The notes under the pieces were generated by a model. The model saw only the letters and a program-made list of their open reading frames with translations. It was not told the origin of the DNA and did no database searches. 40,415 nt of DNA from a virus (taxonomy: Duplodnaviria > Heunggongvirae > Uroviricota > Caudoviricetes), in IMG/VR virus record IMGVR_UViG_2551306526_000008, positions 1 to 40,415 of that record. The stretch is one strand, 5' to 3'. The translations under genes were made by a program, and so were the position numbers. Position 1 is the first letter of the stretch. Every line of letters starts with the position of its first letter. Below, in pieces: positions 5,600 through 32,854 of the stretch.

Positions 5600-5667
5600 G
5601 TCAATATTTCCTAAGACGATTTGTTGATACCGAAGCCCTGACTGTTCCCGCAGTTGGGGCTTCAACT

Positions 5668-21567: not shown

Positions 21568-21861
21568 ATCAACCTCGTCTAGTTGTTCGTCATAGATTCA
21601 GTGGCTGGCGGTGACGATTCCGCTTTTCGGGAGCTACCCTAGCCACTGTTTTATTCTATCCGATGTCTTTCCATCAGTCCGCCACCACAAAGAATCTTTT
21701 TTGCCATAAGGCTGGAGGTTCATCTTTCAGTGGCTGCCAGTGTTATTTCCCCACTTACTGGCTTGGGTTGTATCGCTGTACTGCCGTAACTGGTTGCCCA
21801 GAATAAATTCCGGTTTCATTATCAAGCCCACCCGTAGATAGGCTTTGTAATGCCTACATGG

Positions 21862-30345: not shown

Positions 30346-30464
30346 TTCTTATGATTTCCATAGATAAATAATTTGGTTTTTTATTGTGCACCATTGACAG
30401 TCGTCCATGACCACGCCGGGCACCCGACCGTATACCGGGCCGTTCGGTATAAAAATTTGCTTTA

Positions 30465-30695: not shown

Positions 30696-30729
30696 AAAAA
30701 TAACTCCTACTGAATCCACAATCAGAATA

Positions 30730-30792
30730 ATAGCTAAAGCTATTCAGAAAGTAAATAGCTTTGGGTATTTGACTAATAATAGCTGTAGCTAT
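30730..30792. promoter_or_regulatory. Right operator region (OR) with divergent pR/pRM: ATAGCT-nn-AGCTAT-type sites
   Basis: atagctaaagctat (30730-30743), atagctttgggtat (30755-30768), atagctgtagctat (30779-30792) between cro and cI. Confidence 0.7.
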
Positions 30793-30803
30793 AGGTTGTA
30801 CGA

Positions 30804-31535
30804 ATGAAACTAGATACTTTTTCTCAAAGGCTTACATACGCGATGGATCAGGCTGGGTTTACTCAGGCTTCTCTTGGCAATGCTGTTGGCATGTCTCAGC
30901 CAAGCGTCTGGAAACTTACGTCTGGAAAAACACGCAATACGCGCAAACTTTTTGAAATATCAAAAGTGCTTGGAGTTCGTACGGAATGGCTTTCCGATGG
31001 AACTGGGCCAATGCGTGATGAGGGAGTTGAACCTTATAATCCAAAATCTTCTATTCCTCATGAAAGCACGTGGGGATATTTGGACCCATGGGATGGAGGA
31101 ACGCCTTTAAGAGGTGATGAAGTTGAAATTCCTTACCTTAAAGATATTGAGTTTGCATGCGGGGATGGTCGGGTGATTGATGAAGATCACAACGGCTTTA
31201 TGTTGCGCTTCTCCAAATCAACCCTTCGCAGAGTTGGCGCGAACAGTGATGGAAGCGGTGTTGTTTGTTTTCCGGCTCGTGGCAACAGCATGGAGCCAAA
31301 CATTCCTGATGGAACAACAGTTGCTGTTAACACCAACGATAAGAAAATAGTTGACGGAAAGATTTACGCCATTAACGAGAACGGTTGGAAACGCATTAAG
31401 ATTCTCTTTCGATCAGGGCCTGACAAGGTAAGCATTAGAAGCTTTAACTCACTGGAGTACCCACAAGAAGAAAAGAATCTAAGCGATATCGAGATCATCG
31501 GAAGAATCTTCTGGTGGTCTGTAGTTGACTACTAA
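30804..31535 (+). CDS. cI: CI-type prophage repressor (HTH plus S24 LexA-like autopeptidase domain)
   Basis: 243 aa; N-terminal HTH QASLGNAVGMSQPSVWKL; C-terminal GNSMEP...K catalytic dyad motif. Confidence 0.85.
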   Translation: MKLDTFSQRLTYAMDQAGFTQASLGNAVGMSQPSVWKLTSGKTRNTRKLFEISKVLGVRTEWLSDGTGPMRDEGVEPYNPKSSIPHESTWGYLDPWDGGTPLRGDEVEIPYLKDIEFACGDGRVIDEDHNGFMLRFSKSTLRRVGANSDGSGVVCFPARGNSMEPNIPDGTTVAVNTNDKKIVDGKIYAINENGWKRIKILFRSGPDKVSIRSFNSLEYPQEEKNLSDIEIIGRIFWWSVVDY

Positions 31536-31552
31536 CCTCATCACACCACAAC

Positions 31553-31576
31553 AAACCCGCTTTTTGCGGGTTTTTT
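31553..31576 (+). terminator. Intrinsic terminator after cI
   Basis: aaacccgc ttttt gcgggttt hairpin followed by T-run. Confidence 0.7.
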
Positions 31577-31659
31577 ATTGCCCAAAAAACACCAAATCTC
31601 ACATACAAGAAAAATAAATTACATTAGATATCAATGACTAAATAACCAAAGGAGTTATT

Positions 31660-31700
31660 TTATAACTATAGCTATTTACAGCAATAATAGCTTTGGATAT
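31660..31700. promoter_or_regulatory. Left operator/pL candidate (OL): ATAGCT-type repressor sites
   Basis: tatagctatttacagcaataatagctttggatat repeats the OR half-site motif; located right of cI where early-left transcription should start. Confidence 0.5.
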
Positions 31701-31860
31701 AGTTAAGCCATGTCGAACGGCGCGACATTAAACCATGCGTCGGGAGCGCGGCGGGTTCAGGATGAACGGCAATGCTGCTCATTAGCGAGAAGGCTTTTTT
31801 GCTTTTAGTCACAAAAAGCAAAGCAGCTTTTTGATATAGAAAAAGAAAAAGGAGGCTGAT

Positions 31861-32304
31861 TTGAAGAGTGCTACAGTTTACACGGCAATGAGAGTTAAGC
31901 AATATGGCGGCGTACCTTCGGTAGAGGTAAGGTGTGATGATAAAAGAACCAAAGTTGTTACTGATTGCCTTCTGCTTTTTAAAAGCATAGATGAGGTAAT
32001 TTTTATTGGCGCTGAAAATCTTCACCCTTTGATAAAAGCAGAGATGAAGCAATGTGCAATCGATGCATTGGGAGTTGGGCAAGGCAAGTCTCAGATCGAA
32101 GCAAAGCAAATGCTTACAGAGCTTGAAAGCAGCAGACGTAGACAAGCAAGCAGGGCAAGACAATTTCACGATGCGATCGCAGGATGGAGCAGAGAGCTTA
32201 TGTCTTTAAATGTAGACATACAGAGAGGAATTGATATTCCAACAATAAGGTCAAGAATAGGTACGATCGCAGAGAACATGGAAAAGCTAAATCCAAAGAA
32301 ATAA
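31861..32304 (+). CDS. Hypothetical first early-left protein (possible antitermination factor by position)
   Basis: 147-aa ORF with TTG start preceded by GGAGG; internal Arg-rich segment SSRRRQASRARQFHDAIAGW; start codon uncertain. Confidence 0.45.
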   Translation: MKSATVYTAMRVKQYGGVPSVEVRCDDKRTKVVTDCLLLFKSIDEVIFIGAENLHPLIKAEMKQCAIDALGVGQGKSQIEAKQMLTELESSRRRQASRARQFHDAIAGWSRELMSLNVDIQRGIDIPTIRSRIGTIAENMEKLNPKK

Positions 32305-32328
32305 TAACCCGCTAAGGCGGGTTTTTTA
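32305..32328 (+). terminator. Intrinsic terminator
   Basis: aacccgc taag gcgggtt hairpin followed by T6. Confidence 0.7.
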
Positions 32329-32439
32329 TTACATAAATAACCGTATTTACTACCGCAAGCCACGCAGTGAAATGGGTGTGACTTGTGTTGGTCGCCAGAA
32401 AATGAAATTAGGCAGCAAACCACTTATTTGAGGTGATAT

Positions 32440-32691
32440 ATGGAATTTCATGAAAGTGCGATTTATGATTTTCGCGCTAACGCAAATTCAGTAAAACCAC
32501 AGCCAATTGCAGTTCTTTTTAAAACAATGGGTGCGTGGGCTGTTTTATGCTTCGCCTCTGATGACACTGACGCAAGAATGGCAATAGGTCAAGAGATGGA
32601 GATGGACCCGACAAACGATGAATTCATAATTTATGGCGCTCCATCTAATTACTTACTTGATACCTGCAACATTTACAACAAGGCTGCCTGA
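32440..32691 (+). CDS. Hypothetical protein
   Basis: 83-aa ORF in early-left operon; no recognised family. Confidence 0.45.
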   Translation: MEFHESAIYDFRANANSVKPQPIAVLFKTMGAWAVLCFASDDTDARMAIGQEMEMDPTNDEFIIYGAPSNYLLDTCNIYNKAA

Positions 32692-32827
32692 CGGTGGCCT
32701 TTATTTTTGGCATAAACAACAGAATAAACACTGCACTGTGTATTCATTCCAACGAGTGAATACACGGAGCAATGTCGCTCGTAACTAAACAGGAGCCGAC
32801 TTGTTCTGATTATTGGAAATCTTCTTT

Positions 32828-32854
32828 GCCCTCCGATGTGAGGGCAATTTTTTT
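32828..32854 (+). terminator. Intrinsic terminator immediately upstream of coiled-coil gene
   Basis: gccctc cgatgt gagggc hairpin followed by aattttttt. Confidence 0.65.

Follow-up and report, generated by a model that had tools for sequence, protein, structure and literature searches.

The early-left (pL) operon of the phage studied here is studded with intrinsic terminators and must therefore depend on antitermination, which raises the question of what carries RNA polymerase past them. The phage, a member of the Caudoviricetes, is held in IMG/VR as record IMGVR_UViG_2551306526_000008, and we refer to the whole stretch of 40,415 nt that was analysed as the window. An earlier note on this DNA had described a lambda-like leader, with a boxA, a boxB-like hairpin, and an ORF carrying an N-like arginine-rich motif. 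Our analysis points elsewhere: the leader is very probably an HK022-type putL RNA that would act by N-independent antitermination, with no required part in it for the ORF. The putL and putR antiterminator RNAs of HK022 were reportedly treated by King et al. in 1996 and by Banik-Maiti et al. in 1997, and further put sites are said to have been covered by King et al. in 2011. A cryo-EM study of HK022 put has been published (Hwang et al. 2022, PMC9378689), and HK022 antitermination needs no phage protein (PMC9378689).

Across the whole window, the only Rfam 15 matches are a sar antisense RNA of the P22 immI type (5601-5667, 73 bits), a tRNA (1009-1080), and an int-alpA RNA (21587-21649, minus strand). 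Because of these matches we assign the DNA to a P22-like phage; they point to a prophage, possibly adjoining a tRNA gene, and the best-matching phage is Wanchaivirus PDP110P2. At gathering thresholds, the same whole-window Rfam scan gave no match over putL or putR. The locus represents a system already described, put antitermination of the HK022 type, here in another phage, a P22-like prophage that is for the most part unannotated.

The early-left control region

The earlier note placed the early-left leader just 3' of the OL operators, and we find both pL and the OL palindromes there (Table 1). pL is the best promoter-like match in the region (10/12), and its placement agrees with that of the annotated HK022 pL in O276 and X16093. 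Palindromes of the AATAGCTnnnGCTATT type, as at OL, recur three times at OR (30729-30744, 30754-30769, and 30778-30793).

Terminator-like sites are abundant between 30300 and 33200 (10 observed vs. 2.5 expected), and three of them, at 32306, 32680, and 32826, lie inside 1.15 kb of pL, in support of the antitermination dependence that had been proposed for the operon. The three terminators named in that proposal do exist, but one of them, at 31553, lies past the cI stop (31535) and ahead of the pL -35 element (31675), and thus outside the early-left operon, and the site at 32680-32701 had been overlooked.

Table 1. Features of the immunity and early-left region, in window coordinates
Feature	Position	Strand	Basis or remark
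Predicted putR antiterminator RNA of the rightward operon, in the cro-cII gap	30384-30449	-	Alignment and core pattern
cI-type repressor gene (HTH and S24 peptidase)	30804-31535	+	ORF list; Pfam Peptidase_S24 (3.7e-15), HTH_3
Intrinsic terminator, end of the cI transcript	31553-31579	+	8-bp stem and T-run (terminator scan)
OL operators, two 16-bp palindromes (31661-31676 and 31686-31701) overlapping pL	31661-31701		
pL promoter	31675-31703	+	-35 TTTACA, 17-nt spacer, -10 TATAGT (31698-31703)
Predicted putL antiterminator RNA	31710-31782	+	Equivalent to HK022 nucleotides +1 to +74
Long A/U-rich hairpin just 3' of putL	31790-31830	+	Core stem 31797-31806/31814-31823
Putative equivalent of the HK022 C94 backtrack pause, suppressed by putL	31802	+	Placed by HK022 numbering
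Shine-Dalgarno AGGAGG, 5 nt 5' of the TTG	31850-31855	+	
147-aa ORF, TTG start, phrog_13686, early-left cargo gene	31861-32304	+	ORF list
Intrinsic terminator directly 3' of the 147-aa ORF, tL1-like position	32306-32329	+	Terminator scan
3' relic of an N gene of the phage 21 type, dead (final ~30 codons, start codon absent)	32339-32431	+	
83-aa ORF (phrog_2471, no assigned function), followed by the terminator at 32680-32701	32440-32691	+	
Intrinsic terminator, 9-bp stem, overlapping the end of the 83-aa ORF	32680-32701	+	Terminator scan
Third intrinsic terminator within the pL operon, just 5' of a 322-aa coiled-coil gene	32826-32854	+	Terminator scan

The leader as an HK022-type putL RNA

Sequence identity, structure conservation, gene content, and genomic context are established directly from the window and its relatives. 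In a megablast search of 31536-32440 against phage genomes, the stretch 31704-31841 is 96.4% identical to HK022, HK75, and O276, and in those three records the matching stretch carries the pL -10 hexamer and an annotated putL. The onset of putL at ~31710, right after the end of the pL -10 hexamer at 31703, is the expected location of a put element. Aligned with HK022, the window is identical from putL through 31828, beyond which HK022 continues into nun and the window into the 147-aa ORF.

For comparison with the structure, the HK022 numbering was rebuilt from the cryo-EM paper (PMC9378689), with window position equal to 31708+n for n >= 4. In that structure, A3-G7 pair with C15-U19, further pairs are A9-G35, G12-U32, G42-U65, G43-A64, and C44-A63, U68 of stem II is unpaired, C72 is its last paired base, and a -10-like element spans +23 to +28 (PMC9378689). 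The stems of putL, namely the helices 3-7/15-19 and 10-14/30-34 and stem II (36-72), keep every pair in the window copy. Only four differences separate this copy from HK022 putL, the loss of A3 and the substitutions A5U, U17A, and U19A; together they turn two A-U pairs into U-A in the helix 3-7/15-19, which stays paired through these compensatory flips. The U-A pair of the window at position 5/17 is also the state of 17 of the 22 distinct putL variants that we collected. A3, missing here, belongs to this same helix, and HK022 putL is inactivated when nucleotides 3-7 are removed (delta 3-7). Mutations that inactivate put hit A9, U28, G35, G45, and A64 (PMC9378689), and the equivalents of all five are retained (31717, 31736, 31743, 31753, and 31772), as is the -10-like AACCAT (+23 to +28) at 31731-31736.

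Minimum free energy (MFE) folding separated neither element from its shuffles (z about 0 for putL, with putR likewise indistinguishable). For putL this null result is expected because of its pseudoknot-like helix and non-canonical pairs; MFE folding is uninformative for putL and putR, and therefore covariation was used instead. A degenerate put core pattern run over IMG/VR matched 117 stretches, and all collected loci together with the window hold 95 putL-type and 91 putR-type matches, the two often paired on opposite strands ~1.2 kb apart. When the cryo-EM pairing scheme is laid over the 22 distinct putL variants (from the 95 instances, IMG/VR), 97.7% of cells are paired, compared to 22-54% in a control with the partners slid by 1-3 columns. 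Seven pairs show changes on both sides among these variants, for example A37-U71 to C-G or U-A, G40-C67 to U-A or C-G, and U48-A58 to C-G. The covariation over the 22 variants supports the cryo-EM pairing of putL. The pattern scan suggests that put elements are common, and the leader of the window itself is matched in about 38 of 5,426 complete E. coli genomes.

The putL fold also accounts for the stretch that had been taken as boxA. The boxA of lambda-type nut sites is conserved, single-stranded, and of the CGCTCTTTA or TGCTCTTTA type. The letters tgctcatta are present at 31776-31784, and they are U68-U74 of putL plus two more nucleotides, which places them on the 3' strand of stem II. Their 8/9 match to TGCTCTTTA is at chance level (15 such matches across the window vs. 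12 +/- 3 expected), they lie on a paired strand, and the ATTA, or 3' half, is not conserved among putL relatives. The boxA assignment is accordingly abandoned.

putR and the remnant of an N gene

A second element, putR, lies between cro and cII, just as putL lies right after pL, and both positions are those found in HK022; a putR is expected a few hundred nt 3' of pR. It aligns nearly base for base with the annotated putR of HK022 and O276, with few differences from HK022, and fits the put core pattern including the 7-nt spacer of the putR type.

The operon had been expected to encode an N-like product of unclear identity and start. We find none encoded: a tblastn search of the whole window with six N proteins and Nun returned a single match, at 32336-32428, where the identity to the C-terminal 31 residues of phage 21 N is 90%. 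This is the 3' relic of Table 1: the nucleotides of 32339-32440 share 98% identity with the 3' end of the phage 21 N gene, and their translation, NRIYYRKPRSEMGVTCVGRQKMKLGSKPLI followed by a stop, matches the phage 21 N C-terminus. A phage with putL and putR and without N has the HK022 arrangement.

The absence of N recurs in the family. Among 80 distinct regions downstream of putL, 79 are without a full N and one has a possibly complete N-like ORF, and an N 3' fragment is present in 35. In most loci that bear the 147-aa ORF, such fragments stand directly after the ORF terminator, and this includes phages with a full N upstream. The conserved N 3' end is probably a recombination joint, marked by these fragments.

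The hairpin 3' of putL

The hairpin proposed as boxB is real, with a folding energy of -14 kcal/mol (z -2.55; 3 of 200 shuffles were equally stable). A boxB is a short, GC-rich stem of 5 bp with a GNRA-like pentaloop, and it is the assignment that fails: the stem is 10 bp (16-18 bp when extended) and A/U-rich, the loop is the 7-nt AGUCACA, and the hairpin is missing from most other putL lineages. Its sequence is identical in HK022, where a record from 1989 labels it 'put. nutL equivalent', and it accompanies putL in just 23 of the 95 instances, where the gene that follows is nun in some and the 147-aa ORF in others.

Taken as a structure, the hairpin is far more widespread. We examined the 55 nt that follow putL in loci L012-L128 (e.g. 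L013, L020, and L024), and a long hairpin is found in 46 of the 49 distinct segments, typically at about -17 kcal/mol (range about -15 to -22), with sequences that are unrelated between lineages. Within lineages, compensatory variants occur, such as GATCGCT/AGCGATG vs. GATCACT/AGTGATG. The structure after putL is conserved without conservation of its sequence.

RNase III processing hairpins have an extended double-stranded stem of roughly two helical turns, and the lambda N leader also has an RNase III site. For HK022, Sloan et al. are said to have found in 2007 that RNase III cuts just 3' of putL and that antitermination is unaffected. Because of that finding, the hairpin of the window is probably an RNase III processing site; it would be equivalent to the site reported for HK022, which has the same sequence and is likewise predicted to form about 16-18 bp of double-stranded RNA directly 3' of putL.

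A different role for the hairpin is possible and in our view unlikely: it may serve putL by pausing the polymerase or delaying folding, or control translation of the ORF, and not be an RNase III site. The recurrence of a long, varying hairpin after putL in 46 of 49 lineages, whatever gene follows, does fit a role related to put, but the known pause (C94; 31802 in the window) comes before the hairpin is synthesized, and the cleavage just 3' of HK022 putL reportedly found by Sloan et al. also stands against it. For the translational version, the MFE fold pairs 31824-31832 (CAGCUUUUU) with the Shine-Dalgarno region of the ORF at 31850-31858 (AGGAGGCUG); that pairing, however, is rich in G-U, has no counterpart in HK022, whose sequence downstream is different, and is probably not meaningful. 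The pause itself was reported in HK022 at C94, 21 nt beyond stem II, and the same paper cites Sloan et al. 2007 for antitermination being independent of RNA tethering (PMC9378689). In the window, 31802 belongs to a run of U residues that makes up the 5' arm of the hairpin. RNase III processing remains our preferred reading of this element.

The 147-aa ORF is a conserved cargo gene

The earlier note had left the start of the ORF in doubt. All homologues begin (MKS...) at the same position, with ATG in L006, L008, L009, L152, and L158 and with TTG in the E. coli and Salmonella lineages, which settles the matter. Compared to 11 homologues, pN is 0.06-0.28 and pS is 0.67-0.88 (near saturation), and dN/dS is about 0.1 or lower. 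Given the conserved start, the strong Shine-Dalgarno sequence, and the low dN/dS, the ORF is a genuine gene. Escherichia phage APC_JM3.2 (L003, about 2290-2380, compared to window 31829-31870) has a mosaic boundary just inside the ORF start: the two sequences agree in cI, pL, putL, the hairpin, and the Shine-Dalgarno sequence and as far as codon three or four of the ORF (TTGAAGAGTG), and are wholly different beyond that.

The family is narrow. We found 15 homologues or clusters (at 90% identity) that are 65-99% identical to the ORF, and an exhaustive HMM search of 1.84 billion representatives returned just four clusters (at 50%) and no remote homologues. The family is present in 6 of 50,697 phage records, always annotated as hypothetical. 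Neither Pfam nor PADLOC gave a match, PHROGs gave only a family without a function, a sequence profile search of the PDB gave nothing below E = 1, and comparison with solved and viral predicted structures gave no match. The AF2 model (pLDDT 84.5, pTM 0.56) predicts a four-stranded sheet (residues 5-49) and helices at 56-70, 73-121, and 126-142, and the protein is basic (pI 9.4).

The arginine-rich motif followed by a tryptophan that had been noticed mid-ORF is present. The ORF contains SSRRRQASRARQFHDAIAGW, with 5 Arg in 10 residues. Among the mechanical ORFs of the window that are 60 aa or longer (166 in all), only 4 reach this density, and the Arg cluster is a real compositional feature. It belongs to the most conserved part of the protein, with R92, R94, R98, and W109 invariant, and in the AF2 model residues 90-100 and W109 fall inside a confident 49-residue helix (73-121).

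What does not hold is the N-like reading of this motif. In an N protein, the arginine-rich motif (ARM) is N-terminal and a C-terminal region binds RNA polymerase. The ORF has no match to Pfam N_peptide or N36, BLASTP gives E of 4 or more against lambda N and E = 29 against HK022 Nun, and hhalign against an N alignment gives a probability of 0.4%. By these comparisons, the 147-aa protein is not an N protein.

The genomic positions of the ORF lead to the same result. In the window, phiEt88, and others, it directly follows putL; in Salmonella prophages, L006, L008, and L149-L155, it is directly preceded by a complete N that has its ARM at the N-terminus in the classical manner; and in the L077/L146 lineage, which has both genes, it comes after a nun homologue. 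As the first gene after putL, the ORF is found in 19 of the 95 instances and nun in 10 (both in one instance), and other loci have HNH/AP2-like endonucleases of about 170-180 aa, small Cys-rich proteins of about 55-70 aa, or others. Cargo in the slot after putL is hypervariable. Because the ORF may follow N, nun, or putL, and other genes fill the slot elsewhere, it counts among the many cargo genes that occupy the first position of pL operons; and because it follows putL in only 19 of 95 instances and a complete N in the Salmonella prophages, L006, and L008, it is independent of put and N.

These findings bear directly on the possibility that the leader is a nut site (boxA at 31776-31784, boxB at ~31798-31817) and that the ORF encodes an antiterminator like N, with its Arg-rich segment as the part that contacts the hairpin, a reading that we find hardly credible and consider already largely refuted. 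The hairpin is real, the Arg-rich stretch followed by Trp is conserved, and the same hairpin in HK022 was once labelled a nutL equivalent. However, the two partners are separable, with the hairpin joined to nun in HK022 and the ORF occurring without the hairpin in L009 and L010. The ORF coexists with genuine N genes and is without sequence or profile similarity to N or Nun, and its Arg-rich stretch is mid-helix, not in a free N-terminal peptide. The boxA match, for its part, occurs at chance frequency in a base-paired putL strand whose ATTA part is not conserved, and antitermination in HK022 is independent of any phage protein (PMC9378689).

On the side of transcription, a scan of the interval from putL to the ORF found no promoter-like site, against the model of a moron with its own promoter; in O276, by contrast, nun has its own promoter. 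Among 31 distinct homologous loci, 20 have a perfect-stem terminator within 160 nt of the ORF stop, and some of the other 11, e.g. L004 and L009, have imperfect-stem terminators by eye. In most loci, the ORF travels with its own terminator.

Another way to read the ORF is as a Nun-like or otherwise transcription-directed factor, whose basic helix would bind RNA, Nus factors, or RNA polymerase without being the antiterminator of its own operon. If so, it could exclude rival phages or tune early transcription. Like the ORF here, HK022 Nun is encoded by the first gene after putL, and both proteins have an Arg-rich stretch and a Trp; yet they share no sequence similarity, and in Nun the ARM lies at the N-terminus and the functional Trp at the C-terminus. 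In all 36 loci (36/36), the ORF adjoins an antitermination determinant (putL, N, or Nun), always ahead of the first early-left terminator, but this slot may just be a variable cargo position, since HNH endonucleases are also found there. The protein is basic with its Arg-rich helix the most conserved part, but there is no fold or sequence match to nucleic-acid-binding proteins and no PADLOC match. In a natural in-frame fusion, P0018 (L159, 1195-1491), residues 1-33 are an Arg-rich N-terminus like that of lambda N and are followed by the helical portion of the ORF family; this fusion was found on one metagenome contig of 1.67 kb, amid recombination scars. A 106-aa relative, P0017 (L160, 3001-3321), ends just past the Arg-rich helix and Trp, and L159 and L160 each have several N 3' fragments. 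On balance, we regard a transcription-directed role as improbable and retain the reading of the ORF as a cargo gene.

A model of early-left antitermination and its implications

In the model that we propose for this lambdoid prophage, transcription from pL, repressed through OL1 and OL2, would begin at ~31710, and the first ~73 nt of the transcript would be putL. RNA folding on the polymerase, binding to beta', and read-through are carried over from the work on HK022. As there, nascent putL would fold into a V-shaped RNA of two stems and bind the zinc-binding domain of the beta' subunit of the very polymerase that transcribes it. It would suppress the nearby pause (the equivalent at 31802) and keep the elongation complex terminator-resistant, and the polymerase would then pass the terminators at 32306, 32680, and 32826 and reach the recombination genes. 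On the minus strand, putR would play the same role for the rightward operon. No N protein would be needed, and none is encoded. The hairpin would stand apart from putL, most likely as a site of RNase III processing, and the 147-aa ORF would be the first translated cargo gene, encoding a conserved basic protein with no required antitermination role.

With HK022, the window shares 96% identity in this stretch, the two-stem structure, the critical residues, the pause tract, the hairpin, and the lack of an N gene; it differs in being a P22-like phage with another repressor and other operators. With the N/nutL system of lambda, it shares the genomic slot and the purpose, tL read-through in the early-left operon, and of N itself the window retains the relic. 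It differs from lambda in that an intact N is missing, as are a conserved boxA and a hairpin of the boxB type, and where the modifier in lambda is a complex of protein, RNA, and Nus factors, that of the window would be a cis-acting RNA.

The dead N 3' piece, kept by many put phages, probably marks the joint through which put modules replaced nut/N modules. The main value of the present analysis is a correct annotation of the leader in these E. coli prophages, as an RNA-only antiterminator of a kind that is missed by standard gene annotation and by this Rfam scan.
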